Positions 32,919 to 63,214 of a stretch of 64,000 nt of DNA are shown here, one piece after another. The DNA comes from Marsupella aquatica (Eukaryota > Plantae > Marchantiophyta). The DNA lies in the NCBI GenBank assembly GCA_973895155.1, contig OZ316896.1, forward strand, positions 11,420,730 to 11,484,729, in the 5' to 3' direction. Numbering within the stretch: the first letter of the stretch is position 1; every line of letters starts with the position of its first letter. A program made the position numbers and the translations under genes. The notes under the pieces were generated by a model. That model did not search any database and was not told the origin of the DNA. It saw nothing but the letters and a program-made list of their open reading frames with translations.

Positions 32919-35201
32919 ATCATGATAGCCAACCATGTGGTTGGGTTGACCACACTCTAAACATTACAATATGCAATCTGGCTCTTTCTTTCTTGTGGTC
33001 TCTCTAAGAAATGTCATTATGACAAGAAGCTTCCCTGGCAGTTGGACTCTGGTGACTTTTTTTTCTAACCAGGAGATGGGCCTGAAGATACCATTCTGCA
33101 CCTTTTCCGCACCCCGCCCTCGTCCCCCAACTCACACACTCCTTTGAATGTAGTTCCCAAGCTGCCTCGCCGCCTGCCCTGGGGTCTTTGCTCTAGAAAG
33201 TTTTGATGACAGAAAATTATTTATAAGATGAAATGACCTTTAAACAAGGTTTATCATTGTATGAAATTATTACTAAGATGAAATGCCCTGCAGGTAATCA
33301 CACATCAAAATGTGGTTGCATTCATTGATTCAAAGAAAAAAACTAGGATTATCAAGGTATGCAAGGGTGCCATACATAATATATGTCATATTTTGATGTG
33401 CAATTACTTAAACCCGATGAAATGACCTTTAAACAAAACAAAATAATTAGGTTTATCCTTATATGAAGTGACATGGTACGCAGTCCATTACCACATTTTC
33501 ATGTGCAATTTACTTGGAGTGTACAATTTTGGACACTTGTCACCATTCCACCAGCCCCACCTGCCTGGCCTTGTTCCTAGTTTGTACCCCTGTCTCCTCC
33601 TCCGGCATGGAACACTGTTTCTCATTCCAAAGCCCCAGTGAACCACGTACGTACAGTACGCAGTAACACAACTATCGTACAGGTCCAATAAGGCATGTCA
33701 AAGCACAGATGTCACCGCTTAGGATATAAAACTCTGTTAGAATCAGGACAAAATCACTATGGGCATAATTACCTCATAAAGACTAGAAGTCCAAAGAAAT
33801 TAAGCCTAACTTTGGTTAACTTTCACACACCTTAGTACACTTGCGTCTTAATAACATTTATAACATTAATAACAGAGTACCATAGTAGCGGATGGCAATG
33901 TCGACTGCGCTGCTCTAATAAATGATGACCACAGTACATCAGAGTACTATGGAGCTGCTGACTATGAAGTGCGGCTCTGTGCAGACCTTTCGCTTTGCTT
34001 TGCATCTTTGCCTTTCGCTCTATCTACAGCCTGAACTGAAACTGGTGGTTCTCTCAGAGTCTTTACTCTAATGGTACACAAGTTTTACTTTGATAGAATA
34101 ATGGGATCCTCCGTCAAACCTAGATCTCTCTTCTTGATTCGGTCGCTGCATTTTCGCTCCACCCTGAGCTGAACCTGATACCTGATGGTTCTCTCATTCT
34201 CACAGTGTTGGGATATGAATTTTGGGTTGAAAGGATGAATCTTTCTTCGGACTCAGATCTCTCCTCCTGATTCTGGCACTGAATTTCTCTCCAATGTGAC
34301 TTGAACCTGACGATACTCTGATTGTTACCCTGTTCGTTGATCAATCTTGCGTTGATAGCTTGGGTCTTTCTTCCTGATTCTGTCGCTCATTTTTTCTGCC
34401 CTGCGTGAGCTGAAACTGATGGTTCGCTGATAATAGCAGCCTGTTAGTTTATACGAAGAATGGAGTGGAGAGGTTGGACCCTTCCTCACTGGGTATCTCT
34501 TCTTTATTCTGTAGCCAGACTGGTCTCTCCAGCGTGACCTGGACTTCATGGTTCTCTCATTCTTGCCGTGCTAGGATATGCATTTTGCTTTGAAAGGATG
34601 GAGAAAGGAAGCGAGACCTGATTCTGTCGCTCAATTGTCCGGGCCATAAGGAGACGAAGTGGAGCATCAGCAGAAACAGAGCCCGCGCATGCTCCTGAGT
34701 TGAAGCTACAGAACGGTAAGTGCAGGAGCGTTACCTCTCGCTGTGCTCTCTCCAATTCGTTTGAGTGGTCAATTCGTTCGTAACTGTAGTACATGGAACC
34801 ATTTTGTTAAAGCTCCGCAGAGCAATCTTACCTCAATTAACGAACACTCTGTCTCGTGCAAGTCATTCGCAACTAGGTCGAACCGTTTCCTCAAGCTCTT
34901 GCCAAGAAATCTTAGCTCTAGTAACACTTTGTCTCATTTTCGTTCAGCTACTTGGCAAAGCTTAGCACAGAAATGTTAGCTTTGTTTACAAGATTTCGGT
35001 CTGTGCACGTGGCTTTTCGAGCATTGAGTGATCTTTGAATTTGACGCACCACAAGTTCTGCAATGGTGGCTCCTGCAGTTGAGTTCGCTCGGGAATGTAG
35101 AACGCCGGTGTGAATTGGAGGAATTCGAAGCGTGAAGAGGACGAGGAAGAGAGAGGAGCTTACGAAAGGTAGGAGGGGTTTTGAGTGGTGGGCTTGCGAT
35201 C

Positions 35202-37502
35202 ATGGGGTATGTGATTTTGGCTGGACTCCTGCTCCTCAGCGCCATCCACATTGCTGCTGCGGGTGCCAGTCAGGGTGCAAATTATCTCGTGGGAGTGGGG
35301 AGCCATGACATGACTGGTCCAGCTGCCGATGCCAATTTGATGGGCTATGCAAACCCTGAGCAAACGGCGGGAGGAATACACATGCGTCTCCGAGCTAGGT
35401 CCTTCATAGTGGCAGACCCTGTGCAGACAGAGAACCGTGTGCTATTTGTCAACCTTGATGCCTGCATGGGCGCTCAGAGTGTGACTCTGCATGTGCTGGA
35501 CAGGCTGAAGAGCAGGTATGGCTCGCTCTACACCGAGAAGAATGTTCTAATCAGTGGCACTCACACCCACGCAGGACCGGGAGGGTACTTGCAGTATGTA
35601 CTATATCTTGTCACATCACTGGGGTTTGTTCGCCAGTCCTTTGATGCTCTCGTGGATGGGATAGAACTAAGTATCAAGCAAGCACATGAGACTCTGAGGC
35701 CCGGGTCAATGTATGTAAACGCAGGGGAGCTTCTGGATGCAAGTATCAATCGTAGTCCAAGTGCGTACCTTAACAATCCAGCAGAGGAGAGAGCAAGGTA
35801 TAATTATGATGTGGATAAAACAATGACGTTGCTAAAGTTTGCTGATGAGGAGTGGGGTGAAGTGGGAGCTTTCAGCTGGTTTGCAGTGCATGGCACCTCC
35901 ATGAACCGCACTAACAGTCTGATCAGCGGAGATAACAAGGGGGCAGCAGCACGCTTTATGGAGGATTGGTTCAGCCGCAGGTCTAGTCAGTATTCGGTTC
36001 TTGATGAGACCAAACAGCTGGAGTATGTATCAGATGGGGCTCATCCTGGATTCGCGCCTGTTGATAAAAACACATTTGCAACTGCAGCCATGTTGAAAAG
36101 CTCTGGAGGGAAGCCCAGTACAAAAATGTCCAGTGTCATGCATCGTGTCAGGAGTGCCATGAAGGACTCTCTGAAGCCTCCGTTTGTGGCTGCCTTTTGT
36201 CAGAGCAATGTGGGGGACACGACACCCAACATCTTGGGAGCATTCTGTACAGACACCGGTTTGCCCTGTGATTTCAACACCAGTACCTGCAACGGGAAGA
36301 ATGAGCTCTGCATTGGCCGGGGCCCAGCTTATCCAGATGACCACTTTGCGAGCACTAAAATTATTGGGGAACGGCAATTTAAGAAGGCAGCCGAATTGTT
36401 TGAATCGCCATCATCCCAGCAAATCGTTGGAAACGTTCAGTTTCGCCAGACATTCATTGATTTCAGCAATGTGAAGGTCACTCTGCAGAACAATGAAGTT
36501 ATTACGACATGTCCTGCTGCTGTAGGTTTTGGCTTTGCTGCGGGAACTACAGACGGTCCTGGAGCTTTCAATTTCGTACAGGGAGATAACCAGGGAAATC
36601 TGTTTTGGAAGCTTGTTGGGGGAGCGTTGAAGGTACCTTCAGCTCATCAAATTGAATGCCAAAAGCCAAAACCTGTTTTAATTGACACCGGAGAGATGAC
36701 TTTTCCTTATGCCTGGGCGCCGTCTGTACTTTCCATTTCGATATTTCAAATTGGTCAAATTATCATCCTAGGAGTGCCCGCCGAGTTTACTACTATGTCT
36801 GGCCGACGTCTCCGGGAAGCTGTGAAGACTACACTTATCCAGAATGGTGATGGAGAGTTCGGGGAGGATCTTGAAGTTGTCATCGCCGGTCTCAGCAATG
36901 GATACTCTCAGTATGTTGCGACTTTGGAGGAATTCGAGGCTCAGCGATATGAGGGTGCATCCACTTTGTATGGACCACATACTTTGAATGCTTATATCCA
37001 AGAGTTCAAGAAGCTGGCGACAGCTTTGGCAAAGGGTGACGAAGTTTCGCCAGGACCTGCTCCTCCAGACATGGTGGATCAACAACTGGGATTCCTGCCA
37101 GGTGTGGTAGCAGATGCCACTCCTTTGGGTGTTACGTTTGGTGACTTGAAAGAGGATGTGCCTACGAATGCGTCATACCATGCTGGGGACACAGTGGAGG
37201 TGACATTTTATACAGGTTGCCCTCGGAATGATCTTCTTACTGAAGGAACTTATGCCCTAGTGGAACTTCTGGATAAAAGTGGAAAATGGATCTCAGTCTA
37301 CGACGATGATGACTGGTCTTTACAATTCATCTGGTATCGACCTTCTACTTTCAGTACACACAGTTGTGCCACAATCAGTTGGGAAATCCCAGAGACTGCG
37401 CTGGCTGGTACTTACCGAATACGTCACTTTGGAGCGTATAAACACTTGTTTGGATCTGTAAAGCATTTCACTGGGACAACCAGCGCTTTCGTAGTCTATT
37501 AG
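35202..37502 (+). CDS. NCER: Neutral/alkaline non-lysosomal ceramidase, single coding exon, 766 aa
   Basis: Signal peptide, YLVGVGSHDMTGPAAD, GTHTHAGPGGY, FAVHGTSM, SGDNKG, NVGDTTPNI (variant of the GDVSPN amidase motif), GFAAGTTDGPG, RYEGASTLYGP, GTYRIRHFG. ATG at 35202; the track starts at TTG 35181. Confidence 0.96.
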   Translation: MGYVILAGLLLLSAIHIAAAGASQGANYLVGVGSHDMTGPAADANLMGYANPEQTAGGIHMRLRARSFIVADPVQTENRVLFVNLDACMGAQSVTLHVLDRLKSRYGSLYTEKNVLISGTHTHAGPGGYLQYVLYLVTSLGFVRQSFDALVDGIELSIKQAHETLRPGSMYVNAGELLDASINRSPSAYLNNPAEERARYNYDVDKTMTLLKFADEEWGEVGAFSWFAVHGTSMNRTNSLISGDNKGAAARFMEDWFSRRSSQYSVLDETKQLEYVSDGAHPGFAPVDKNTFATAAMLKSSGGKPSTKMSSVMHRVRSAMKDSLKPPFVAAFCQSNVGDTTPNILGAFCTDTGLPCDFNTSTCNGKNELCIGRGPAYPDDHFASTKIIGERQFKKAAELFESPSSQQIVGNVQFRQTFIDFSNVKVTLQNNEVITTCPAAVGFGFAAGTTDGPGAFNFVQGDNQGNLFWKLVGGALKVPSAHQIECQKPKPVLIDTGEMTFPYAWAPSVLSISIFQIGQIIILGVPAEFTTMSGRRLREAVKTTLIQNGDGEFGEDLEVVIAGLSNGYSQYVATLEEFEAQRYEGASTLYGPHTLNAYIQEFKKLATALAKGDEVSPGPAPPDMVDQQLGFLPGVVADATPLGVTFGDLKEDVPTNASYHAGDTVEVTFYTGCPRNDLLTEGTYALVELLDKSGKWISVYDDDDWSLQFIWYRPSTFSTHSCATISWEIPETALAGTYRIRHFGAYKHLFGSVKHFTGTTSAFVVY

Positions 37503-39024: not shown

Positions 39025-40833
39025 CTACAAAATGTTTAGCTGCAAATCCTTGTACCCATGCTCTGCTTTGTGCTTTTCAAAAAGCTCCTCCATGGCAGTG
39101 ATGAACTTTCCAAGTACCTCAGCGACCTCGTCTCGAGACGGCGTTAAATTCTTCGTCACCTCAAGGGGCTTTCCCACCACTATGTTGACTGGCTGGCGGT
39201 ATGGCAAAAAGGTTCCGTACATGCCCCAGAAGAACATTGGGGTGAACCCCAGTCTCCGAGAGAGGCTATGGTACCACTTTCCCGTGGGCTTTCTGTAATG
39301 GTAAACCTCACTCTGGCCAAAGCAAAATACAGGGACCAATGGAGTACCTGCCTCCATGGCACACCGTACAAATCCGAATCTTTCCCTCAAGAAAATTGTC
39401 TCTTGCCCTGGCTTCATATGTAAACATTCCTGAACTCCGCCTGTGCAACAAACGAAACAGCAGCCATCAATGAAAGAATTGGTTACTGCCTTTTGTTTCG
39501 GTTAATGTAGACGGATTAAAGCATCTGCTAGCTTCCTAAAAGCACTTCGAAGGCATTTTTCCTTTTGCTTGAGCAACTGAAGGGAAACGCTAGATTCGGC
39601 CACCCCTTCATTTGTGGAATGGGGAATAGCGACGAATGATATCAACAGGTAAACGCCTTACAAGCTCAATTTTCTGGCCATGGCCTGGATCCTTGGAGAA
39701 ACTGAACCGTACTCTGCTGATATGTTCTACAATTTAGTGGAAACGTTGAAAGAGTTGGGGCGAGAAAGTTTGCAACGATGTGTTTAAACGCACTCTATTT
39801 GCATCCTGGTACGGTTGCTCAATCCAGTAATACAGCTCGTGATATCGGTTCCCTTTGTTTAAGACCCTTCACGAAATAAATTGAACATGTCCTAGATAGA
39901 AAGGCAAGCCCAGTCACAACAGCTCTATGATGAAGCAAGACACTGCGAACACTAAATGTCGACGAGCGTCATTCCATTTCCACATCTTGCAAAAGGTTCA
40001 GCGCTACATGGCTAAGTGGAGTCCTTTGCTTGCCCCTCTGTCCCACGTTCGCAGAACACCATAACTATGTGGACTCATATGTGAAACAATCAGGTAAGCG
40101 GGGGAAAACCAGCAAGAGAGAACATAGAAAGGTCAGTTTGATTCCACAAAGATTTGCCTTGGGCTTAGAAGACTTGTATGTCACAATGGCTCTTGCTCAA
40201 ATCAGAGCTCTAAATTCGAGTGAAGGCCAGAATTCAGCACAAAACTAACTCAAAATGGAAGTCCTCAGAGCAATCCTCACCTGGAACAACCACCACAGTG
40301 GTCCCATCGTTGAGCAGCTTGGAAAAAAGCTTTCTGTTAGCAGGAATCAAACCCATCCACGTCCACAAATGGCGCACGATTGGAGTCCACAAAAGTATAG
40401 TGCTCCCAGCAAATTTAATCTTCTTCCAGGGCAAGACACCACTGTGGGTCGTCATTGATACAAGCCCCACAGGTAGCACGGAATGCGGCTCCACGGCAAG
40501 AAGATAGGGGCGCTCCGAGTCCAACGCAGCTATGTCCTCCACATGCACTTTGATGGGAAAGTGCGAAGGGACGGTCTTCCAGACCCATTCGGACACGGTT
40601 TTGGCGAACTGGGTGTCGGCGAAAATTGGGATAAACATCTGAGACATCCACACCGAAACTGCAGTCAAGGCCCACAATCTGGGCAGAAGGAGAAAGCAGA
40701 GGAAAATTACTGTGCTGCCTATATGGAACCCTCCCATCCATATCGCCAACGCTGCAATCTCCCCCGTTTGCTTCCTTAAGCGGGTAATAAACTTGCTCTC
40801 TCCATACGCCTTGCCACTGTCCATGATTGCCAT
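39025..40833 (-). CDS. DGAT2: Diacylglycerol O-acyltransferase 2, two exons (40833-40281 and 39440-39025), about 322 aa
   Basis: Plant DGAT2 motifs HFP, EPHSVLP, PG|GVQE restored across an 840-bp GT-AG intron, RFGFVRCAMEAG, LVPVFCFGQ, VVGKP. Confidence 0.93.
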
Positions 40834-41013
40834 GGAGAACAATGTAATCGTCTCCACGCGGAGGACACCTTCAACTAGAACCCTGCAAAACGTCTCTCTA
40901 CACCAGGAGATTTCTCCAATCTGTCCCTTGTCCAAATTGAGAATCCGTGCACTGTCGACTGACTGATTCCTCCACTGGCACTTAGCTGGGTAATCCTGTC
41001 GTCCCCTCGGACG

Positions 41014-41170
41014 AAGGTAGATGCTCAAATGTGTGCAGATCTCCTTTCTGGAATTCGGTTAAATGGACAAATCCAAAGGTAGATGATCAAATGACTGCAG
41101 ATTTCCTTTCTGGAATTTTGGCCACTGGATGCATCAAAGGTTGATGATCAAATGACTGTAGAAGTCCTTT
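41014..41170. repeat. Degenerate tandem repeat of about 60 bp, about 2.5 copies
   Basis: aaggt(a/t)gatg(c/a)tcaaatg..tg(c/t)aga..tcctttct at about 41014, 41076 and 41137. Confidence 0.7.
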
Positions 41171-44100
41171 CTATCATCGGACAAATCAACAGGTACGTGA
41201 TTAAACGAGTGCACATCCGATTTCTGCTGCTCAGTGAGTACATCAAATCTGTAGATCCTATCGTTCCTCGTCTTTGTGTTCCCCTTCAAACTTAGTGGCT
41301 GACAGAATGGCAGCCACAATGTGGGGAACTGGAATTGTAGTCCAGCCCACTAGCTCATCATCTTTGACAGGTGACACAGCTACAAACATTCCAAAGCTAC
41401 CCAATTCACTCACGAAACGCGCACCCATCCGTCCAATCGTGTCCACAGCATTCTCCAACACATCATGCTGCCGACCGAAATTCTGGGCAAACCGAAATAA
41501 AACTTCGCCGGCAGCATTGTTACTGGACTACTAGAGAGCCGACCAACCCCATCACGATCGGAGGAAGGCCCACTGCTGAGACGAAAAGACGGTCGGAATC
41601 CGATGTCCAATAATGGTCCACGGATGGACGCCGTGGGAGCTGCCGGAGTCTCCGGGGCGGACAAAATCTCCATCATTCTGTTTCTGGCAGCACAATTCTC
41701 CGAGTTGCGTGGAAATCCAGGTGGGGGGCCTGTCAGCTTGTGAATGGCGTGGGTCCTGTCAGCTTGTGAATGGCGTGGGTCCAACGAGAGACGAGATTCT
41801 GTTTCTTGCTTTGTTTCTTTCGTTCTTAAAGAATGATGGTTCCAATACCAGAATCATTTCACGCCATTTCATTCTGCCTCTGCTCTGCTCTGCTCTGCTC
41901 TGGAAGCTTCAGTCCATTTGAAACGCCATTGGAAAGGCCGAAGGCTTCTGATCTGAGGCTTGAGGAGCTCCGCAAAGTCGAGGCCGAATCATTGAATGTT
42001 GCTCCATGGGCAGGGACAATTTCTCGGTCCATCCGAGCTTCATTTTCCAGGCTTTTAGCTTCTTCGTTTTGGTAAATTGTTCCTTTTTCTGCTGCATTAT
42101 TACCAAGGGCTAAAAGGGGGGCTTTACAAGACTGTGAGGGCAGTTCAGTGTTTCTCCATCTAAAGCCAAAAAGGGGGAGCCAATTGCCAATTCCATACAC
42201 TACATTTAAGATGCCTGAGCCAAAATGTGTCAAGTATGAAGACAATAAATGCAATACCCTAAATAGAAAATAGAAGCGATGGCTTGCTCCATTCTTTTAG
42301 ACCCCCTCAAGAGGAGATCTAAGTTTTTGACCATCACGAGGTAATGGAAGTCTAACTTTGCTCCTTAGGAGGTATTGAAAGTCTAACTTTGCTCCTAGAG
42401 ACTTTTTGTTAAAAAGAAGGTCTATGAGAGTTGCATGGTTCACAGGCTCTATCTGTGGGACCATCATTTTCTGGTTTTCTCCCAGGATTTTTTCCTTTTT
42501 AATAGACCTATTTCAGATGAGATGCTCAGATGGACCCTCTGGTGAACTGTGTGACCCAGATGGACCAGGTCACTTTTGACCAATAATTCAGCCCTTGTAG
42601 GTAGGTAGCCAATAATTTAGGAAACGTACAATCTTTGTGATCTAACCAAAGAGAATGAGTTTGTGTGGGCATGTTCTCTACGTAAGTAAAGTTCAATAAC
42701 ATCACAAAAATGCTTTGCCAAATGGTCACACTGAAGATGAAAGAGTGAAGGTATGTGACATGTCACAAAGCACATTTGAAATGTGAAAGCTAGAATAAAT
42801 TACATCCATGAGTCTCATCTGTAGAGTATTGCACGACAAAAAAAGCTTAGCCATTGGAATTGAACGGTCATGGAAATTGAAATTTGCATCTATGCCTTAA
42901 GTATAAGTGTAGCAGCGAGATTGTTCTCAACACACTAAAGCCCTGCACACTACCACATCAAAAAGCCTGGAACAAGCAATGTTCTCATGCAATCGCCTAG
43001 ACTTTACGCTGCTCAAAATCATTTGAGATGGCATAATGTCAAAGGACACTGGTGTACAGAAGATGCTTTCAGCATTTCTAGAAACTAAGAATGTCTGCGG
43101 AGTTCAGTGCAAGAGCTACCGTTAGCCAGTTTCCAAAGTGAAGGAGGCATAGACCCAAAAGAAAACAGTTGCTTCCTGTTCGAAGCCAAGCTTGGTTGTT
43201 TTCAGAAGTTTCATAAGCAAGCCAGCAGTCTTCCAACACAAGTAAGCCTTCCCATAAAGTTTGCATGTCGAGTAGGGAGAAGCTGTCTCTACATCAAATT
43301 CACTCCTATTTAACTCTTCTCAAATCTTACTTACAATATTAACTTTTCAATGACTCATCATTACAAAGCACTCAAAATTCTCTATTTTTCCTTTGAAAAG
43401 TGGTTTTATATAAAAGTCACACATTATGCCAAAACAGGCCTCTGCGACAGGGTGCCTCATTTCAAAGTGAGGGGAAATGAAAGACAGTTGCAACCATCAA
43501 TGGTTCCCGGGGAAAAATCTACAGCCTCAAGTAAAGCACTCAAATATTCAAAGTCATTCAATACGATCATATTTACTAGCTTCATACAATCTTCCATCAT
43601 TTGTGATATCATCCAGGAAGTAGATGTCAATACTTGATGAACTGTATGCAGTGCAAGTTGGATTCTCTACTTCTGTCCCCAGTGCGAGCCCCAGTGAGAC
43701 TGATTATAAGCTCTCTGATCTCCATCTGATCACCGAGCTCCATATTCTCAAATCTTTCTCCAAAGACCAAAATCTGTCGTGTAACACTCACAAGAACGCT
43801 TGGGAAACTGCAAGTTGTAGAGAACAGTCGGACTGGCTCCATCAGGATACTAAAGGTGGTAGTAGCAGTCAGTGAAGGCTTTCCTGGTGGGAGTTCCATG
43901 GTGATTGACTGAAACAAGAGATAAAGAGATCTATAAAGATCAAAGGTAACACTAACTAAGTGCCCAGCTTGTTAATTGGCTGTCATGTTGTGGCTGGAAT
44001 TGTAACTGCCCACCACGTTGGACAAACAGTAACCTCCTTGGATTGGAAATCAAATACCCTACCTAAAACCTGGTGCCTTGGGGGTTTCATTTTGACAAAA

Positions 44101-44528
44101 ATGGCATATCACGTGCAACGAAAGATAGGGTCATTTTATTCATTTGGCTTGAAGGGAAAACTTAAGAAATTTCTCAGAATAACAATAGGGTCTTTTAAAT
44201 CCAAATTTAAGACTTATACAAACATTAGGGTACTCTAACCAAATTTTTGGAATATTCCAAGAATACTCCAACTTCATAGGGGTTGAATTTTTTTTAATTC
44301 TTATATTTTAGGGGGTCCAAGGCCTAAAAATGTGGCAGGTGATGGGGAGGCATCCATATAGTGAGACCCCCAAGAGTGTAGCAAATCCGAGAGCAAATCC
44401 CTACTGGACTTTGCACCGTTGGAGCATCAAACCAACCAACATTGAGACAATCCTCTCCATCCAAGCCTACTCAAATTCTGGTGCCCTTCTCTGCCTATCA
44501 TCATCAGTCTTCTCAACATCTGCTAAAC

Positions 44529-45894
44529 TCATTTGGATCTTGTGACTCCAAAAATATATATCCGAAGTAGATCTAGTAAGTTGAAAGCAAGGTTGAAAAC
44601 CACACCAAATCTACTTCCAGAAGTTATAGGAGATACTGACTATTGAAGTATATTAGATTGCATGAACACCACATCTCCAGGTCTTACATCAAATTGATAC
44701 CCTATCTATAGAATTTGTCGTAATCCTCCTTTGAAATCTCCAAACACCAGATTTGCTACCCAGCCACTCACCCAGCCATCTATGGCATCTGTTGAATCCC
44801 TATGCGGGCCCACACTGAAATCAGTTAACATGGCCAACCCCATAAAACAATTCCTGGTTGCAATGTGCATGAAAGATGTCGCCCCCATGTCTACGCAAGA
44901 CTGGAAAAGCCTTTGGTACCTAGCATAGTTTGTTCCATCCATACACTCATAAAAAGCCCCAACAACTTGTGTAACTGGTGTAAATTTTCTGAAAAGCTTG
45001 CAAACAATGTTCAATTTCTCCCCTGACACAATCATATCACTGGATACCTCACCAGGTGCATGATTGTGATCTATTCTATGCCAGAACGCCAAGTGATGAA
45101 TTCCATGGCCTGCATCATGTTTACTCCCCTTGTGCGTCTTATTTGTTCCTTTTGGAGCCAGAGGAGGATAAACCTTTACAATCTCCTGAAGGGCATCCAA
45201 CCCTTTTATAGTAGGATCCCTCAGTGTAAAAGGCATCTTAGAGAGTTTTTTAAAAAAATTGAAAACTAAGGGGTTTCTGATCAGGATCCTTTACTATCAA
45301 ATCACCACCTTCCCATATAGGTAAACCATCAGAGGAAAGATCTCATTCTTTTGTTTCATAAGAGTTTCCACAGTGAAATTACAAGTCTTTACCTCAAATG
45401 TTTTAGCTAACAGCCCAGTAAACCTACTCCAAAAACTTTTATTTTGCTCCCATTCGCATCATTCTAATAACTTCTGTGGATACCTCTGTTAGGAATTGAC
45501 TCCAGTTCCCGACATAGTTAGCTTGGACTTACTAGGGTTAGTTAACCCTAGATTACATTAGGATAAGATCCACTTAGTTTAGGCCCACTCATCTTGGCCC
45601 CCTTGGGGGGTATAGGCTGGAGGGAGAGCACTCTCTCTCTCATTCTTCACATGTACTCTCATTTGCTATGGAGCCTTCAGGAGTTTCTCCACTCGGGGTG
45701 TCTCGTCGGTGTAGCGTCTGAATGAGTCTCTCTCATGTTTCCGCATTGCTGTCTAGTTCGGAGCCGACGGTTTCTTACAACCTCGAGCCTTCTCCATGTT
45801 CTCTTTTCATCCTTTTGCTTTTCTCTTATTTCCCTCTCCCTGACTGTCCTTTGAAAACCTCTTGTTCTTCTATTATTTCCTTGTCTCCTTCCAT
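44529..45894 (-). pseudogene. TET/JBP-family 2OG-Fe(II) dioxygenase, decayed and interrupted by a solo LTR
   Basis: Reading through stops gives GIHHLAFWH..CFMGLAMLTDFSVGPHRDSTDAIDGW..VFGDFKGGLRQIL*IGYQFDVRPGDVVFMQSNILQ*SVSPITSGSRFGVVF. HxD is at 44804, the distal His position is a TAG at 44640-42, and the 2OG-binding Arg is retained. The frame from ATG 45894 continues across the excised LTR. Confidence 0.8.
45487..45779. mobile_element. Solo LTR, 293 bp
   Basis: TGTTAGGAA...TTTCTTACA termini with a perfect 5-bp TSD ACCTC at 45482-45486 and 45780-45784. Confidence 0.9.
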
Positions 45895-46989
45895 TTTCTA
45901 GCGTATATATATATCAACAGCATTTAACACCCAACTGGTGCTGCAACTCGGTCAGCTCGTATGCTTCATACAGATTGAATTTTGATAATACCGATCCTGA
46001 TTCATGTATCACCAATTCTGTGATAGCGAGAGTAGTGTCAGAGCACTCAATGATTGGTTCTCAAGTGATTAGCTTGAAATTCAAACTGCACATATCGGTC
46101 TCAAATATAGAAAATGTCCCCAAAATTCACCATTTGGACCCTGGTTTGGCACTGGTTTGGCACCCTAAGAACACTTGACACTGAAAAGGTACAAAAAACT
46201 ATGACATTTGCAGAAAAAATTGTGTTCTTATCTTGCTCTAAGCTTAATGTGTGCTCTCAATCGTTCAGTAAGTCGATCATGATCTTCAAGGATTTTCAAA
46301 TACAACCACAAAATCGCACAGAAATGTGAAGATGAAAGTCAGCATTATTCCCATTGACATAGTTATTTGCAAACCAACTGCAAACCCCGAGTGCTCACTT
46401 CATGTGTGACTCGGGCTGAGGCAACGTCAAACGCGAGGTATTGGAGCCCTCTCCGAGTACATTAGTCTGGATTCGAAGAAACGTGCATTGGGGATTTGTG
46501 AGTTGGGACTGGCAAGTGCAGAGGGTTTACGGTTTCCACTTGCTGCATCCTGCTACAGCAACAGTTGACTCTTAGAATCACCGGTCAGTCCCCTGCTAGC
46601 CCCTTCACCTCTGCCCACAGGTTCAAGAAGTGCTACGGAGTGTAACCCATCCCAAAGCAGGGGTAGTGAGGGGTAGTGGGATGCAGTCCTGGAGGGTGGT
46701 GAGCTGGAGAGTGTTTATAGCCCCTTATCCCCAAGTGGGAACCTATCCCAAAGAGAGGGTAATGGATGTAATCGCAGAGGGTGATGAGGGCTGTGAGTCG
46801 GAGGAGGGTTATAGCCCATTATCCCCAAGCGGGGATGAGCAACCGAATTAAAACTCAAGTCCATTTTGAACCATTCATTTCATTTTGACATTGCAAGAGT
46901 TTCATCTGTCACTGTTTGCCACCTGCCCTTTATTGTATCTTTCATTGAAATTTGTCTGCCACTTGCACTTTACTATATTTCTCGCCAAA

Positions 46990-47720
46990 TTTGAGAATCC
47001 CCAGGCCGGGCTGGCACAACGGGATCATGGCCTCATTGGGGGTAATGCCTCATAACCAATAGAAAGAAAAACATTCACAAGGGGTTTACATGTAGGGTAA
47101 CCCATGGCCCCAAGGGACTTATGGAATGTAATCCCCAAAGGAGTTGAGCCAGAGGGGGTTAGAGCCATTGCCCCTCAGTGGCAATGGACTAAGCAGCCTA
47201 AGCCCTCGGTGTGATTTGCTCTATTTTTTGACCTGAAAATGTATGCCGGAATTAACTTGGATAACCCTCCAGGCAACATAGGGGGCCTAAAGCTCATAAC
47301 CCCCAAACCAGGCTGGCATGGGGTAATGGCTTATAGCCATCCATAGAAAAATAAAGAGAAAAACCACACAAGGGGTTTAGGTGCAGTAGCATCCCAGAGG
47401 ATGGTTAAGTGGCTTTCAGCCTGTAGCTCCTGAAGAGGTCATGGATTATAGGGCAAGACGCAAGTGTAATTCTGCTCTACTAGCCCAAATACCCATGCGT
47501 ATGCACCAGAGGAGCCCCCATACCCAGAATCCCCATCTGTTCTTACTCACAAACATATTCTGGATATCAAAAACTTTGTTACTAGAGAAAATTTGGCCCA
47601 CATCTTCACTTTATGGAGGTCATGGACATAGACTCTGATTGCCAATTAGAGTTTTGATAGTCATTGGAATTTTTGCAGCATCTTATAACCCCCGGGTTAG
47701 GCTGGCTAGGGGGTGCCCAA
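46990..47720. repeat. Cluster of related palindrome-rich MITE-like repeats
   Basis: 47002-47110 resembles 47304-47400. The segment tgtagggtaacccatgg..ctctattttt.acctgaa..tatgcc at 47091-47248 recurs at 50994-51120. Confidence 0.5.
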
Positions 47721-49189
47721 GGTCTCGTACCTCTGTGCGCTAATTCAAAGGGCCAATTCGCATATCAGGGTCCTGCATCCTTCGGCATGTGTTCAGACAA
47801 ATAAAAGAAGCATCTCAAAAGAGACCCAATCTAGCAGCATAGGACAGTACTTTTGTGGATGTGACGTAAACTTTGCATTCGTGGAGAATGGTGGAAGAAA
47901 CATGAACAAGATCTTGCCTGCTTGTGAAGCCAGATAGTCATGTAAATTCGTAACTTCACGGTTACGAGAAGTAAGCTCCGATCAGGTCTGGTCTCTAAAA
48001 CATAGAAATTTGAGCACGACTGCAATGGATTGGAAAACTAACCGTCGACTTAGGGAGTTCGTTGACTACACAGATACAACGTCATAAATGCACTGGATTT
48101 GCATATGGCAAAGCCGAGAAGGCTGATGGTTTTGCACTAGCCCAAGAGCCTAAACATTAAGCTGACCATGGAATGCTCACTCGGTCAATCTATCATAATA
48201 TATGGCCAGAAGAAAAGGGTTCCAATTGAACTCTAAGATGCAATTCCCGTAAAATACATGTAAACGTATACCTAGTCCACTTAAAGGACCATATGGAAAT
48301 ACATCATGCTGCTTCGTTTAGATTCTCTTCATCCAACTGAAGGCATCGTAAGCCCATCATAGTGGAGTTAACTAAAGCAAACCGAATACAAACAACTGAG
48401 AGGAAGGCACTTCTCATGGAAGAGATCCTCCTCCTATGTTTGCTTGAAAATAAGTACATAGACTATGCAGATAATGGCGACGATTATGGCAAATGCATCG
48501 AACGCAAGGGCAGCCTGAGTCTGTTCACTAAGCTCCATATTTCGTCCTCCAAGAGTATCAACTGGGTTATCGATGAAGTCCCTGTCCGACTCCCATGCCT
48601 GGCCCACATGACAATATTGTCAAGTTAGACTATTTCAAGTATTCAAATTACAATGCCTGAGTGAATTCATCGTCAAACGAAGCTAACACGATTTGAGAGA
48701 GGTTGTCAAGCTCGATAGGCTCAGAGAAAATCACTACAGGTTGTTTCTCAAAGTACCCGGGGATAGGTTATATGTCAGAAAGGCCTAGGTACTAGGGTTG
48801 AGAGGGTAAAGAAATCTGTTCTAAATCTTGCCTTATCGTGTATCCGCAAATTCACCACACTTTTTTAAAGGACTAATGAAGTCTTCAATGGATTGTGGTC
48901 TTACTCAGTCCCCTTACTAGATAATGCCTTCCTGACTCGCTAAAAGTGCAATTCACTCTTAAAGATCATAATCTACCTAACCTAGTCCCTTTGCAACGGC
49001 TGGCCTTTTATCAGGTCAGAGCATAAACCAGTCTTCCTCACATTCGGCTCGGCACAAACTTTATGCCACGATGATGACGAAGAGTTAAACCTTCATGCAC
49101 TTGCAAGGCAATCAGATGAAGGTGAGGGAGGGATTGACCGTGCATATAGCCAGTAGCCAACCTCTTCCTTAATAAGTTAATAAAACAGA

Positions 49190-51570: not shown

Positions 51571-53512
51571 CTCTCAAGCTACCTGTCCACTTTGGCCTTA
51601 CAGAAAATTGAGTATTAGGTTTCACCCATATGTTCGTGTTAGATATTGCTCTAGTCTTGTGACTCATGAGCTAACCACAATTAGTCTAACTCTGGTTAGG
51701 ACTTAGCTGGTGTGCATATAGCCAGGGCTGATGCTAGACCCTGGTGGAACTTAGGCTCATTGTTACGGAGCTAGTTGAGAGATAGGGAGAGCTTGTGCTG
51801 TGGATGCTTGGTATGGCCAGTCGGCCTAGAGTGCAGTAAAGCTCTTGTGTGTTCCCGTGGACGTAGCCTCATGTGGAGGTGAACCACATATCTCTCTGTG
51901 TCGACTATTGTGCGTTGGATGTTTCATGGGCTTACCGTTACGAATGTCGTCTATGTCAACAAGTGGTATCAGAGCATGCCTGGGAGGTGACGAGGTTTTT
52001 TTTCGTGACGGGTTTTCCAGCGTTCATTGTCGATGGTACATTCGGAGTTTCGTCGCATGAAACTCAAATGTGTGTGGCTGTGAGGATAGGTTAGTGAGAG
52101 GGCTTTCTAACGGTGGTTAGAACTCGCTGATCGGTATCCGTGGTGCGGAGAAATCGAAGTTTGCGTCGTTCAGGTTTTATTCGTGTTCGACGGCTTTTCG
52201 GGGGAGAGACCAGAGTTTGTGTTTTTCAACAGTGTGAGTTGTGCGGTGCAGGAGGGATCGCACATTATAGCTCAAGTTGAAGGTTGAAGCGAGCTGGTCA
52301 TTTCGGTAGCTGGATTGCTGCCGAGTTGTTACCGAGTGCGACGTGACGAGTGAAGGAGGCGTTCAGGTTTTTTCACAAGCTATGGAGCTTGTTCTCATCT
52401 GAACCGGGTTTCTCTTCGTGACATCCGACTCGGTGGAAGAAACGCAAAGTGCCACGGCTCAACGGTTTGATCGCAGCGAAGCGATCATTTTGAGCCCGGG
52501 TTTGGCACTTGACGCGGAGTGAGTGCGACGTGACGGAAAGTTTTTTCTCTGTTGAAACTGCAGACTGTGCCGGTGAAATTTAGAAACTTTTTCCGTCCGT
52601 AGTTGGCACTTTCTTTGTTTGAAACGACAGTGATTAAGGTGTGTAATCAGCAAATCTTGCTTTAGGGTTAATTTTTGCCTTTTTTGGGGGGGTTTAAGGG
52701 TCATTTTTTTTTGTGTGTATACACACCGGCCCCTTTTGGTACCCCCGTCGTTACCCCCCCTCCCACCGTGTATACAAGCCCTCCCGCTGCCCACGCCGGC
52801 CCTGCCCACCCCGTCCTCCTTCGCGTACCAGCCCACTCGCCGGCGCCCCTCCCCGACGCGAGGCGCACTCGCGCCTCCGACCCGAAACCTTTGTTTTTCT
52901 TTGTACTCGCCCGCCTAGACGCCCTGTACACCCCCTGGCCCGCCTCGCGTCGCGCATACGCGGATGCGTGTTTTTTACTCCGTATTTCAGTTAAGGGGCC
53001 TTAGCACCCCCTTTAGGGCACTTTCTTATTGCTTTTTTCCCTCTCCTTGGTTGTCCTGTGTGCCGGGACCTGCCGCCCTCCATTTTAACCGCTCCAACAC
53101 AGGGAACGGCCCCCTGTGAGACCTGTCGGACTATGCAGGACTATTCCCAAAAAAACAGAGAGCTGTTTTTTGGCCATCCGACAAAGATTTTATCCGCCAA
53201 ACGGTAACTTTTTTGGTTCTTTTTCGGTGAGGACGTTGCCCCTGGCGTTAGCAACGCGGCACACCAATCACATTGCGATTCCGACGACGGGTTGTACTGG
53301 GTATTTTGGTTATTCTCCGAGGTGGTCAAAACGGGGGAGTTTCCCAAGGTTTTACCCACCCCGACCAAAATTTGAATAACTTTTCCGTAGAATTTCGATT
53401 TTGATTTCGGCTTTCAGTATTGGACTCCTAGCTTCGTGGGCTACGCGGCGGTGTTGAGTTTTGAGTTTTATGAGAAGTTTCGAAAAAAGACGTTTTTTTG
53501 TGATTGTTTCAT

Positions 53513-54568
53513 ATGAGTGACTCGGAGGATACTGGAAGAATTGGCGTGGGTGGAGCTTCAGGATCGCGACGATCAGACGGTGAGTCTGAGGAGGAGCTGC
53601 TACCGTTTGAGGAGGAACTTGTGACACTGGTAAGATCACCGGTGTGGCGTGCAATGAAGGAAGCTGTACTACTACCAGAGCTGTTGGTAGTGGGGAAGAA
53701 GAGGGAGATGGCTAGATTTGGAGGAGTGAAGTTTGAGGTGGAGAAGTACGATGGTCGTACTGATTACTTGCTGTGGGAGAAGCAAGTGAAGGGTGTTCTA
53801 CGGGCCATGGGCTTAGCTCATCTGCTCTCTTCGCGAGAGCAGTATGATGGAGAGGAGGAGATTTCTGTGGGATAGTGGAGACAGGAGCAGGTGATTGCTG
53901 TCAATGCAATAATGCTATATCTCAAGCCGCACATCATCAAGCAGCTGGATGATTATGCGGATTGCGCGTCACTGTTCAAGGCTCTAAGAGAGAAGTACTA
54001 CCGGGAAGATGCGTTAGACCGGTTGTACAAGAAGTCTCTCTTGATGAGCCTCAGGCTCAAGGAACGGAGCAAGATGCAAGATCACCTAGATGAGTTTGAC
54101 AGTCTAGCGGTGGATCTGTCAAACCTGGGAAAAGAGGTTGAAGATGAGGATAAGGCCTTGCTTCTGCTAAGCTCCTTACCGTCATCTTATCAGGGCTTGA
54201 AACAAGTGCTCTTGTATAGAGATCTAAAATCCATTTCGTATAATGAGGTGGTGAGCTCTTTACTGTCTGATGATGCTCAGAAGAAGCTGGGTCAATCACA
54301 GACAACATCTTCTTCTGGCACTGCGCTCAATGTGAATAGGGGAAGAGCAGCGCAACGCTCGAATGGGCAGAACATGTTTAGATCTACATCACGGGGGAGA
54401 TCTAAATCCAGAGAGAAATCGCAAGAAAGGAAGTCTCTTGCATGTTGGAATTGTGGCAAGCCTGGCCACATGAAAAGGGATTGTCGAGTAAAGGTCCCTA
54501 CTGCCTCTGCTAACGCCGCATCAAGCTCGCATGAGGTAGATTTACTCAATGATGATGACATATTGTGA
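53513..54568 (+). pseudogene. gag: Copia gag
   Basis: FEVEKYDGRTDYLLWEKQVK, LLLLSSLPSSY and the zinc knuckle CWNCGKPGHMKRDC. In-frame TAG at 53873-53875. Confidence 0.9.
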
Positions 54569-57500
54569 TGTCAAGGTTATGCTCTCAATGTAGTGTCAAA
54601 TCCAGGTAGTGATGATTGGATTCTAGATAGTGCATGTACTTTTCACATTTGCTCTAGGAGAGATTGTTTTAGTTCTTATACAGTTTCCAACGGGTCAGTG
54701 TTGATGGGAAATGGAATCCCATGTCAAGTTGTTGGACTTGGATCTGTAAGATTTCAGATGTTTGATGGTGCTGTGAGAACATTGAGGAATGTGAGACATA
54801 TTCTCAGCATGATGAAAAATCTCATTTCACTTGGAGTTTTAGAAGCAAATGACCATCAGTGGAGTTCTGCTAATGGTGTCCTTCAGGTTTCAACTAGTAC
54901 TAAAGTTGTATTGAAGGGAAAGAGACATTGCAATCTATATATTTTGGAGGGCAGTGTAGTCTGTGATGAAGCCAATGTAACCTTATCTCATGAGGAGATG
55001 ACCCAGCTGTGGCAATTCCGTTTGGGCCACATGAGTGAAAAAGGTTTGGTTATTCTTCAGAAGAAAGGATTACTTTCTAATTTGCAATCTTGTAAGTTTG
55101 AATTTTGTGAGTACTGTGTGCTAGGGAAGCAGCACAGGAAACCCTTCGGAGTTGAAACTCACACCAGCAAGGAGGTACTTGAGTATGTACATAGTGATGT
55201 GTGGGGTCCAGCCCCTACTCCCTCACATTCTGGACGGTTATACTATGTCACGTTCATAGATGATTACTCAATATATGTGTGGATATACTTTCTACACAAT
55301 AAGTCTGATATTTTTGCCACTTTTGAGGAGTGGAAAGCCCAAGTTGAGAATCAGACTGGTAATAAGGTGAGATATCTTCGATCGGATAACGGCGGTGAAT
55401 ACAATTCCGGGGAATTTGGAACGTATTGTAAGGAGCAGGGGATTACCCGCCATCTCACAACAAGTTATACTCCTCAGTAGAATGGTATTTCTGAGAGACT
55501 CAACCAAACACTATTGGACCGCTCGAGGAGTATGTTGAGTCAATCATGCTTACCACATGAGTTTTGGGCTGAAGCTGTCAACACTTCAACTTATTTGGTA
55601 AATTTTTCTCCATCCAGTTCTATTGGATTCAAGACGCCATTTGAAATGAGGTACGGGCGTCCAACAGATTACTCACATCTGAGGATTTTTGGATGTGATG
55701 CTTATGTGCTTACACTTTCCCAACTTCGATCCAAGCTGGAGTCCAAGTCGAAGAAGTGCATTTTCCTTGGCTATCAGAAAGGTGTGAAGGGTTATAGGTT
55801 ATGGGATCCAATAACCTGTAAACTAATTGTCAGTAGAGATGTGTCATTTAATGAATCTAGATCATCAAAGGAGGGGGAGAGTTCTCAAGACTCCCACACT
55901 GACAAGGGGAAATCTCCCATCCCGGACTGGGTTGAGGGGGAGATTAGTCATGATGGAGAAGCTCCGGGCTTGGAGCTGGTTCCTGTGATGGAACAAGAGG
56001 AGCATATTGTTGCTAGGGTACCTCAAATTCAACCAGCAGCAGCAACAGATCAGCCTGAGTCATCTACTAGAAGAACTTCCAGTCGTTCTACTAGAGCTCC
56101 TACCAGGTATGGTCAATGGGCAGACTCATCTAAGCTAGATGATATTGACATTGCACCTGATGAAGATGATATGGCTTTGATCTTGGAAGAAGGAGAGCCT
56201 TTTTCGTATAGTGAGGCTTGTGCTTCAGAGCAGAAGCATGAGTGGAATGCAGCAATGCAGAGGGAGTTGCAATCTTTGAGTGACAACAAGACATGGGAGC
56301 TGGTGGAGCTTCCAAGAGGTCAGCAAGTGGTGGACAGCAAGTGGATTTACAAGTTGAACGATAGTCCTTTAGAGGGTGGAGACAAGATCTACAAGGCAAG
56401 GCTTGTTGCCAAGGGATTCACTCAGGAGAAAGGAGTGGATTACAATGAGGTCTTTTCACCGGTGGCTAAGTATTCCACAATTCGGATCTTGTGTCAGCTT
56501 GTTGTGTTTTTTGGTCTGGTGATGGATCAGATGGATGTTGTTACTGTTTTTCTCTGTGGCAACTTGGAAGAGATGATCTTCATGAGACAGCCACTAGGCT
56601 TTATGAAGAAGGGCCAAGAGAACTTAGTTTGCAGATTGCTCAAGTCCTTGTATGGATTGAAGCAGTCTCCTAGACAGTGGAACAAGCGGTTTGATGATTT
56701 CATGCTTGTTCAAGGTTTTACAAGGATTGTGTATGATCCTTGTGTGTATACAAAATCAATCAAGAATGAGGTATTTGGTTTCATCATTCTGGTGATCTAT
56801 GTGGATGACATGCTGATTGTGGCTAAAGATCAATCTGAGGTTGACAGTCTCAAGGCAAAATTGAGTGCTGAATTCAGGATGAAGGATCTTGGTAAGGCCA
56901 AGAGGATCTTAGGGATGGAGATTTTTAGGAACTCTGAGATTGGACAGTTGTGCTTGAGTCAAGGCCAATGCGAGGAAAGTACTTGCACGATTCAACATGG
57001 AGAACTGTAAGCCAGTCAGTATTCCTTTAGCTTCACATTTCAAGTTATCATCGGCTTTCTCTCCTACGGATGCTGTGGAGAAAGGTCTGATGGCTAAGAT
57101 TCCTTATGAGAGAGGCAGTAGGCAGTCTGATGTATTTGATGACTTGTACTAGGCCTGACTTGGCCCTAGCAATGGGCAAGGTTAGCAGATTCATGTCAAA
57201 TCCAGGAAAGGTACACTGGGAAGCTGTGAAATGGATTCTCAAGTATGTGAAGGGAACACGGGACTATGGATTACTATTTGATGCCAAATCAGATAGAACG
57301 TTAGTTGGCTATGTAGATTCTGACTATGGAGGCTGTCTGGATACAAGGAGGTCTACAACTGGGTTTGTATACACTCTTGGAGGAGGATGTATCAGTTGGA
57401 AATCTACCTTGCAGAAGTGCATATCTCAGTCTACTACAGAAACAGAGTATGTTGCAGCAACAGAAGCAACAAAGGAAGCAATTTGGTTGGACAAGTTGAT

Positions 57501-57765
57501 CGTGGAGATGGGTTTAGAGCATGGCAAAATGACTCTAAACAGTGATAGTCAGAGTGCTCTTCACTTGGCTGCTAACCAGGTGATGGATAGCAGGGTGAAG
57601 CACATTGACATCAGGTACCATTTTATCAGGCAAGCAGTGTCTGATAAAACTTTTGAGCTAGTCAAGGTTGATGGAAAGCTCAATCCCGCTGATGCTTTTA
57701 TCAAAGTGATTCTTTTGGAGAGTTTTTCAAGACACCGTGCTACTTTGCAGGTTTTGCAATTGTAG
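54569..57765 (+). pseudogene. pol: Copia pol (protease-integrase-RT-RNase H)
   Basis: WILDSAC (protease); HSDVWG, FIDDYS, RSDNGGEY and GYRLWDP (integrase); YKARLVAKG, SLYGLKQ and YVDDML (RT); GYVDSDY and KHIDIRYH (RNase H). Stop at 55478-80 and frameshifts near 56970-57110. Confidence 0.93.
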
Positions 57766-58958
57766 TGCAAATATAGTTATTTAGCAATGTGTGACTATTT
57801 GTATATGGATTACTCATTCCTGTTAGGCTACGGCTTAGTTCTAGTTAACCCTTAGCTAACCCTTGTGGTTTTTAGGGGAAGACTTGGTTTGGTGATTGTC
57901 TAGAACTTCCCATTGAGGATTCCATATGGTAGCATTTAGTCTAGTCCCCAAGACAAGAGTCAAGGGGGAGTTTGTTAGATATTGCTCTAGTTTTGTGACT
58001 CATGAGCTAACCACAGTTAGTCTAACTCTGGTTAGGACTTAGCTGGTGTGCATATAGCCAGGGCTGATGCTAGACCTTGGTGGAACTTAGGCTCGTTGTT
58101 ACGGAGCTAGTTGAGAGATAGGGAGAGCTTGTGCTGTGGATGCTTGGTATGGCCGGTCGGCCTAGAGTGCAGTAAAGCTCTTGTGTGTTCCCGTGGACGT
58201 AGCCTCATGTGGAGGTGAACCACGTATCTCTCTGTGTCGACTATTGTGCGTTGGATGTTTCATGGGCTTACCGTTACGAATGTCGTCTATGCTCAACAGT
58301 TCCAAGATTTTATTTTTACATTCATCACAACCTTTTATATCGAACCTACCCATCCTCTTTGTCACTTAAAACATTTTGCTCGTAGATTTCATCACAACCT
58401 TTCATCTCAAGGCACTGGTCCACTTTGGCTTTACATAAAATTGACCATTGGATTTCATCTGCTCATACAATGTGACCAGTCCACTTTGGCTGTATATGAA
58501 ATTATTTATTAGGTTTTGTGACATCTGGCCAGGAAGAACTGGACAGTTTCGGATGAAACTTGAAGCTAGTAACAAGTTAAAGGTAGTATACTTTGGTAAT
58601 ATATTAAAAATTCATCAAAACTGGGTTAGAAGTTTGTATTGAGTTCATTTGACAAAATCAGCGTGCATTGGACAAAGACAGTCTTAAAAAATAGTGGATT
58701 TGTTTCTTATGTATGCAATTATAATTTCTGTGGGTTTTCAGTTGGGTTTAGGATCTAAGTTATAAAAAACAAAGAATGTAACCAGAGGCCAATAAATCAG
58801 TTATCAAGAAAAGGGTGTATTGCACTGGCATTGCACTAGTTAATTATTAAGAATATAACCAGAGGCCAATATGTGTGGGATTTCTCACTGCTCCCCGAGC
58901 AATAATTCTCGTAGAGACCTTCCTCATCACGGCCATGGTGGCCAGCTGGTTTCTTTGA

Positions 58959-61539: not shown

Positions 61540-62294
61540 CTTTGATCAAACAAGTTGGAGGTAATTTACGTAGTGTAGATTGAAAGAAAGTGGCCTAAAT
61601 TGCTCTGGGTATGAACTGTGTGAACTCTGGTTCTTCAGGAAATGGATAGACTGTTTGATGAGATTCAAATGTGCTAATAAGGCGGCAGTCTGGCAATGGC
61701 ACGAGCGTGCCTTATGGCCGTTCCCACTCATAAAGTTAAATCGAGTATAGGACCTTGTGACGGGGTTCCGTCACTGGAAATCATCCTCTATGATTGTGAA
61801 CTGGGGTGGTGCCATGTAACCATTGTAAATGCGCCCTTTTTTTTTTCTGGGAAGTTATTTCCGTCACTTATGAGGGATCGGATTTTATAAGTTGGGCCCT
61901 TAGAAATAGAATTTGACAGATGGCCCTACTTTGGGGGAATGAATTCCCCATTATTTTATGACCATTTCCGGGGACCCCAATAGCAAGGAATAGGGAGTGG
62001 AACTTTAAGTGTTAGGGAAAAAGGGTATATAAGGGGGTGTTTTGTTTTTTTTTGTTAAAAGGCCATGGTGCTACCGCGAGGGCTTGCATGGGGAAACGCG
62101 CTGCCAAGGAGCCCATAAGGGGCACCCCTGGGGCTTGACACGTGGAATCTTGGGGGCTAAGGAGGGAGCTCCGCGAGTAAGTAGGGGAAGCCGGGGCGTG
62201 AGCCAGGTCGAGGCGCGGCACGGGGGGTTTAAATTCCCCAAGAGGGGCGCAGCCGGGGGGGAGTCACATTATACCCTCCCAGGAGGGTACCAGG

Positions 62295-62492
62295 GCAGCC
62301 GGGGCGAGCCGAGGCGCAGCCGGGCCGCAGCCGGGGCGAGCCGAGGCGCAGCCGGGCCGCAGCCGGGGCGAGCCGAGGCGCAGCCGGGCCGCAGCCGGGG
62401 CGAGCCGAGGCGCAGCCGGGCCGCAGCCGGGGCGAGCCGAGGCGCAGCCGGGCCGCAGCCGGGGCGAGCCGAGGCGCAGCCGGGCCGCAGCC
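62295..62492. repeat. GC-rich 32-bp minisatellite, about 6 identical copies
   Basis: gcagccggggcgagccgaggcgcagccgggcc is repeated without visible mismatches. Confidence 0.95.
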
Positions 62493-63214
62493 GAAGAAAG
62501 GAGGAAGAGGTCGGGGGGAGTATTAACTCTCCCGTGAGTGGAGTTGGGGGGAGGAGGGAATTTAATTCCCCATACCAGGGGGAGCGCTACGGGAGGCGTA
62601 CCGGGAGCCGGGCCCCCAAAAGAGGGGCGAGTAAAGGTGGGGGGGTATTAAACCCTCCCGCGAGCCAAGAGGAGGGTGCAGGGTGCTGCCGGTACGCGAG
62701 GCGCTGCATAGGGCAGCGTGTAGCAAAAGGGGGGGAATTAAATCCCCTGGCCTCAGAGGTAACAGGGCGCAGTGCGAGCCCTGCATAGGGCCACGTGCTG
62801 CCGGGTGGCTCCCGCGAGCTGGTGAGAGGAGGGCGTAGGGCGGCGAGCCGGGGCACAAGGCAGCCGGGGCGCGTGGCGAGAAGGAGCCACGGGGTTTCCT
62901 TTTTTTTCCGTCCTATTTTCTCACTTCCTCTCTTTTGCAAGACCAACTCATTGCCGAAAGCAAAAACTTGGGCTCTCTCTCAACTCTTGCCGAAAGCTCG
63001 CTCCACATTTTGCAATTATTATGGAAGCTCTTTCTCATGGTCAATTGTTGAGGCTTGTTGGCATGATTCTTTCGGGCATTAGCGGCAGCAGCACGGAGTG
63101 GCTTCTGAGGGAATTGAGGGTAATTGATTGATGGGGGCCGTTTCGGGCCAGGGAATTGACATTGCTATGGGTGACGGGATTTGGTGATTGAGGATTTGAT
63201 TTCTGGATGCATGG

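Follow-up and report, generated by a model that had tools for sequence, protein, structure and literature searches.

A dead TET/JBP-type dioxygenase gene in leafy liverwort DNA, likely of fungal origin

TET/JBP-type enzymes, which chemically modify methylated DNA, are said to be absent from land plants. Among the closest described systems, the residue at HxD+3 of NgTet1, D234, binds N4 of cytosine and sets the preference for 5mC, with F295 and H297 holding the base, as described in PMC4678852; this Asp is reported to block 6mA (PMC4678852, PMC11040006), and Gly331 at HxD+3 of CcTet to admit it (PMC11040006). For transposon-borne fungal enzymes, the type definitions given by Kojima 2025 (PMC12730594) are HxE for the PE type and Gly or Ser at HxD+3 for the AG type. 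The titles and abstracts searched, which the spelling 'TET/JBP' matches poorly and whose scope does not extend to the Iyer surveys or to tables of bryophyte horizontal gene transfer, did not mention a TET/JBP gene from any land plant. The window analysed here, a single stretch of 64 kb of liverwort DNA, contains the lethally damaged coding relic of such a gene. The occurrence is real and places a known family in a host lineage new for it, although the gene is dead.

The relic is a single-exon TET/JBP dioxygenase gene of about 353 codons on the minus strand (45894-44529). Its features are as follows; residue counts refer to the rows covering each column among the best 150 of 201 homologues.

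45780..45894, minus strand: putative 5' coding segment, rich in K, R and E, with ATG at 45894 and one stop, placed by frame continuity into the core
45487..45779, no strand: solo LTR of 293 bp with TG...CA ends, a high-copy host repeat, with ACCTC at 45482-45486 and 45780-45784
45222..45486, minus strand: N-terminal part of the relic, with one stop and three frameshifts; pieces in three frames match homologues P0002, P0003 and P0094 in order
44529..45221, minus strand: catalytic double-stranded beta-helix region, ending in TGA at 44529-44531, placed by Pfam, homologues and fold
44787..44804, minus strand: H-R-D-S-T-D, all intact, with HxD at 44802-44804 and 44796-44798 and the HxD+3 Asp, which matches D234 of NgTet1, at 44787-44789
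44706..44708, minus strand: in-frame TAG, where a second copy has a Gln codon and the four closest homologues likewise have Gln
44640..44642, minus strand: TAG replacing the distal Fe-binding His (His in 115 of 122 homologues)
44610..44612, minus strand: 2-oxoglutarate-binding Arg, intact (Arg in 112 of 123 homologues)
45826-45828, 45459-45461, 44706-44708 and 44640-44642, minus strand: the in-frame stops of the coordinate reading
44076..44374, no strand: high-copy repeat of the host, bearing short inverted ends, 3' of the gene and outside it (summed depth 18,000-33,000 against 23 in run X1)

An open reading frame of 194 codons (44706-45290, minus strand) reads on past two TAG codons to the TGA at 44529-44531. 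The coordinate reading of the whole gene, in which X stands at the breaks, yields 353 positions with four in-frame stops, in keeping with the product of about 355 aa that an earlier note had obtained from the letters by removing the LTR and reading through four stops. That note had counted at least one frameshift; the best reading has three, between about 45335 and about 45221, and allowing for them raises the bit score from 185 to 207 against P0002 and from 70 to 95 against P0094. No homology could be aligned to the first 37 codons (45894-45784), and we infer the gene start at ATG 45894, the only ties of these codons to the gene being the target duplication and the kept frame. The motifs of the double-stranded beta-helix lie in the order claimed for them, including the upstream GxxHxxxW: HHLAFW upstream, then HRD (44804-44796), GW, GDFKGG, PGDVVF, the TAG in place of the distal His, and GSR. 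In the numbering of the relic protein (P0001), H162 and D164 form the HxD and R226 is the 2-oxoglutarate Arg. Two further lesions are the loss of F-x-H at the last strand and a 12-bp duplication (GWVS-GWVA), the latter absent from 19 of 19 aligned homologues and from the contig of run X5. The TAG at 44640-44642 confirms that the distal His codon is a stop and that this copy is dead; it makes no active enzyme today and is a member of the family by descent.

Tet_JBP (PF12851) is the only Pfam match of the relic (E 4.2e-5), at 23.3 bits, below the curated cut-off of 34.9. A phmmer search of 1.84 billion representative proteins recovered the 201 homologues at E <=0.001, and the best of them, P0002, is 45% identical with an E value of 1.8e-48, which in a collection of this size shows that the homology is not due to chance. 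When the relic was aligned with its 19 top homologues, each of the 20 rows matched Tet_JBP (best 5e-17), and two of the 20 matched 2OG-FeII_Oxy_3 (E 0.001). In a profile search of the PDB, NgTet1 (7e-11) and CcTet (2e-10) were found and nothing else below 0.1; the only sequence matches of the relic by itself in the PDB are to NgTet1 (E 0.03). An AlphaFold model built from the 20-row alignment (pLDDT 79.6) aligns with CcTet at Z 17.9 (rmsd 3.0, 221 aligned; Foldseek E 1e-9), and NgTet1 (Z 15.7) and TET2 (14.0) rank above PHD2 (13.2) and FTO (12.9), with CMD1 placed below CcTet and NgTet1. Profile, structure matches and fold ranking agree with the family assignment first made from the letters, and TET profiles and structures rank ahead of AlkB, P4H and other 2-oxoglutarate oxygenases. 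An AlkB or prolyl hydroxylase identity was rejected, as both ranked below all TET structures by fold. NCBIfam gave no match for the relic and PHROGs a single weak one (E 0.024). Word-index protein searches, a method insensitive here, returned 178 candidates for the relic, none of which scored, and only six matches for alignment A1. Within the 64-kb window no second TET-like stretch was found, none of 145 tblastn matches lying outside the locus.

Among the same best 150 homologues, the HxD His is present in 131 of the 142 rows covering its column, the HxD Asp in 130 of 141 (Glu in one of the 141), and the HxD+3 Asp in 128 of 142. The relic has HRD and Asp at these positions, and its clade is neither of the PE nor of the AG type. 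Because the closest intact relatives keep both the HxD+3 Asp and F-x-H, 5mC oxidation is their predicted activity, the preference for 5mC being predicted from the D234-type Asp.

The solo LTR is bounded on both sides by the 5-bp target duplication ACCTC. With the LTR and one ACCTC taken out, the frame of ATG 45894 enters the frame of the conserved core, an agreement that coincidence would produce one time in three. Summed contig depth over the LTR reaches about 5,000-10,700 in run X1 against 23-27 on its flanks; in each of four runs its depth exceeds that of single-copy DNA hundreds-fold, which identifies the element as a host solo LTR. The repeat at 44076..44374 appears to be MITE-like. Just 3' of the relic, scraps at 42300-43970 (minus strand) resemble a decayed NB-LRR gene by eye, with no match in a six-frame Pfam search.

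By Pfam, the genes of the window comprise MLO, a TAXi-type aspartyl protease, neutral ceramidase, DGAT2, DnaJ, Kelch and RING, of which four are placed as follows.

4724-6544: MLO
27144-28649: aspartyl protease
35136-37502: neutral ceramidase
39025-41058: DGAT2

The ceramidase (35.2-37.5 kb) shares 92% and 90% identity with two proteins of Calypogeia fissa and 75% with those of Marchantia and Riccia, identities which mark the host as a leafy liverwort (Jungermanniales) and bear out the land-plant host that had been proposed. Long-range contiguity of the relic with the plant genes rests on the assembly. MLO, the aspartyl protease and the ceramidase are intronless and DGAT2 apparently has one intron, an intron-poor set. 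Elsewhere in the window, a multi-exon gene or element at 15890-19211 (plus strand) has an inserted SAP domain (Pfam, 18110-18463) and in-frame stops; its frame motifs look to us like a Mutator-like transposase, for which Pfam and PHROGs gave no transposase match. A coding region in one frame with several stops at about 53500-57800 (plus strand) is presumably a Copia-like retrotransposon, judged by its motifs, and GC-rich tandem repeats at 62033-63976 are followed by two frames lacking a Pfam match.

Copy counts refer to run contigs compared with the window at >=80% DNA identity. At this threshold the core is covered by one contig type in the runs of organism A, with a flat depth of 22.9 in X1. 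Organism B (runs X2 and X4) has a second copy of about 89% DNA identity (14 differences in 128 bases), which in X4 stands at nearly the same depth as the window type (38.2 vs 40.8); X5 holds the second type only, as one contig at depth 4. Compared over window positions 44478-45458 in X2, X4 and X5, the second copy has Gln at the window's first TAG (44706-44708) and several residues closer to the homologue consensus, but is itself interrupted by a separate stop at codon 210. At the His TAG no difference is among those listed for the second copy, whose contigs cover the site at 28-30 letters from the aligned end; in a second-copy contig, differences at 20-28 letters from the aligned end were among those listed, and 3 of 14 were unlisted. 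The His stop appears to be common to both copies, and the gene was probably dead before they separated. At least 16 codons differ in the second copy (19 bases), 14 of them amino-acid-changing and two silent, as expected under neutral decay. The relic has a CpG observed/expected ratio of 0.22, whereas five intact genes range over 0.56-0.92 and the Copia-like element has 0.33; the depletion in the relic would fit long-term methylation. The terminal branch of the relic (0.63, homologue median 0.65) is of ordinary length, which leaves room for a past period under selection and a function in the plant. The second copy may be a homeologue or a paralogue; allopolyploidy is known in Calypogeia according to PMC10205812. 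Both copies at similar depth in organism B, and the second type only in X5, form a possible allopolyploid pattern.

Species-named members occur in three of 30 homologue clusters checked (Pseudogymnoascus, Peltula and Watsoniomyces), and Xylographa makes up four of the six matches of the alignment-A1 search; neither set includes a plant, and all species-named homologues are Pezizomycotina fungi. An unrooted IQ-TREE tree of 35 hand-chosen rows (the relic's clade with named and nearby homologues) places the relic in a 21-row clade (support 100/98) in which none of the 20 other rows has a species name, the named fungi standing outside. Nearest to the relic stand two unnamed Logan fragments, P0005 and P0094 (support 94/86, not starred). 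They could represent copies from plants, and in that case the plant lineage would be wider and older. With FastTree (116 rows, 10 near-duplicates dropped) the relic falls in an open 7-row group.

The gene of the best homologue, P0002, was sought on metagenome contigs, where 59 pattern matches led to four loci, three of them this gene, in CpG-poor DNA. In a eukaryote-like contig the gene and a JmjC-like frame (a weak match, E 0.074) are arranged tail to tail; we take that frame to be fungal by its look.

L001 1770-2804; L003 1274-2298 and 2864-4267, minus strand: P0002-type gene and JmjC-like frame

None of the three metagenome copies is intact, L001 having a stop and L002 and L003 a frameshift each, although the database protein P0002 is open. 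Among other homologues, P0015 (KAI9882494.1) bears the source name 'vacuolar protein sorting-associated protein 45' but is a Tet_JBP protein, a likely misannotation, and P0146 (1632 residues) combines a Tet_JBP domain with a Ulp1-family protease, an architecture suggestive of a transposon. Searches by one or two short patterns, a weak method, gave 40 pattern matches in viral contigs and 29 in prokaryote genomes, with no relative confirmed in either. Ascomycete symbionts are given for six of the seven Calypogeia species tabulated in a review (PMC7062687), and fungus-to-bryophyte gene transfer is described as frequent in PMC12513842. Taken with the fungal identity of the named homologues, these reports make a fungal source likely. 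The possible acquisition from fungi suggested earlier is thus favoured by the names, but the named fungi lie outside the relic's clade and the tree is unrooted.

We consider it likely that the relic is a dead nuclear TET/JBP gene of a liverwort, an old acquisition probably from an ascomycete, whose ancestor is predicted to have oxidised 5mC. In this scenario the liverwort genome would have received an intronless ascomycete-type 5mC dioxygenase gene, whose source was probably an ascomycete living in cells or in soil. In the ancestral enzyme HxD...H would have bound Fe(II) and the Arg 2-oxoglutarate, while the HxD+3 Asp and F-x-H would have read a flipped 5mC as in NgTet1, leading to 5hmC, 5fC and 5caC. 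The transferred gene may then have been methylated and silenced, and the distal His codon would have turned into a stop before the two known copies parted, both decaying neutrally afterwards. A later LTR insertion in the window copy, followed by recombination, would have left the solo LTR.

Fungal contamination, or a misassembly joined into the plant scaffold, could be imagined because leafy liverwort samples contain fungi (as stated in PMC7062687), no run contig reaches from the relic into a plant gene, and the window may itself derive from the matching runs. We hold it to be extremely improbable, and the contamination check showed no sign of it: the LTR that splits the gene and the flanking repeat both stand hundreds-fold above single-copy DNA in four of four runs, a contig of 1171 bases in X1 joins the 3' repeat, core and LTR with zero differences, identical sequence occurs in runs from two studies, and the composition has drifted (GC 0.42 and GC3 0.37 in the relic, 0.51 and 0.56 in the gene of its closest homologue). 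A second possibility is that a TET-bearing DNA transposon (KDZ, Plavaka, Helitron or similar) carried the gene in, and that the gene acted briefly as an anti-silencing factor for this element and died with it. TET/JBP genes in eleven fungal DNA-transposon lineages (reported in PMC12730594), the CpG-poor, repeat-rich contigs with broken copies of the closest homologue, and the distant homologue fused to a Ulp1 protease would all suit such an origin. However, the relic exists in one or two copies and is not dispersed, it is without the PE-type HxE and the AG-type Gly/Ser at HxD+3, and the neighbour of the closest homologue is the weakly matched JmjC-like frame and not a transposase. Six-frame Pfam searches of the flanks, 1.8 kb and 3.3 kb either side (42300-44075 and 45900-49150), were empty and detected no transposase, although old remnants could lie below detection, and overall we regard this origin as rather unlikely.

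Vertical inheritance in the green lineage, or a non-fungal eukaryotic source, with loss in model plants, would accord with the lack of taxonomic names in the relic's clade and with TET homologues in green algae (CMD1). We judge it very unlikely, as CMD1 comes after CcTet and NgTet1 in the fold ranking and has no canonical 2-oxoglutarate site whereas the relic keeps the Arg, and as the species-named homologues are all ascomycetes. The earlier note had gone further and envisaged an acquired family whose intact paralogues could oxidise 5mC; the relic would then be one dead copy within a TET/JBP family still alive in liverworts, in which a more distant intact copy oxidises 5mC. Despite its lesions the relic still matches an intact homologue at 41.6% identity across 267 positions, and its branch is of ordinary length; its sister fragments P0005 and P0094 are unnamed; P0092, a 73-residue fragment 66% identical over 41 residues, keeps the distal His and F-T-H; and run contigs were compared only at >=80% identity. 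Against this, one contig type at flat depth covers the core in X1, no protein exceeds 45% identity over the core among the 1.84 billion representatives, the word-index search scored none although its collection holds Calypogeia fissa and Marchantia proteins, and P0005 has Asn for the HxD Asp. The sole other copy at >=80% identity is itself dead and drifting neutrally, and these searches yielded no close intact protein from a plant. An expanded family with intact paralogues thus found no support, and we consider a living family unlikely.

The relic shows that the nuclear genome of a land plant has at some time acquired a TET/JBP gene. No plant pathway is changed by this unless an intact copy is found, given that the gene is dead and that fungus-to-bryophyte transfers are common. 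The clade of the relic, uncharacterised and with an NgTet1-like active site, offers a precise probe for a living bryophyte copy. That leafy liverworts took up a fungal 5mC dioxygenase and that some of them keep an intact, expressed copy is an improbable prospect; if true, land plants would have a TET route to 5hmC, 5fC and 5caC separate from ROS1/DME.

Among known systems, the Pezizomycotina Tet_JBP proteins (Pseudogymnoascus KFY14075.1, Peltula KAI9794089.1, Watsoniomyces KAI9882494.1 and hypothetical proteins of Xylographa) resemble the relic in being a stand-alone domain of about 330-380 residues and share H-x-D-x-x-D-x(3)-G-W, G-x-F-x-G-G, P-G-D, H, R and the upstream H-x-x-x-W. They are 26-34% identical to the relic, intact and outside its clade, and the literature searched gave no biochemical characterisation of them. 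The transposon-borne fungal TET/JBP proteins (PU, AG and PE types; Kojima 2025, PMC12730594) belong, as far as that source describes them, to the same superfamily and represent a possible carrier route, but the PE type has HxE whereas the relic has HxD and no transposase detected alongside. CMD1 of Chlamydomonas brings a TET-family fold into the green lineage, with the canonical 2-oxoglutarate site absent; the relic, in contrast, is intronless, of fungal type and keeps the 2-oxoglutarate Arg. The best fold match is CcTet of Coprinopsis cinerea (PDB 7VPN, 7W5P and 8JKK; AG type), at 13-16% identity and with Gly331 at HxD+3 where the relic's family has Asp. NgTet1 of Naegleria (PDB 4LT5 and 5CG8), 15-18% identical, lies opposite a relic that is without the distal His and F-x-H, but has the HxDxxD and R-x(5)-F-x-H pattern in common with the relic's closest intact relatives.
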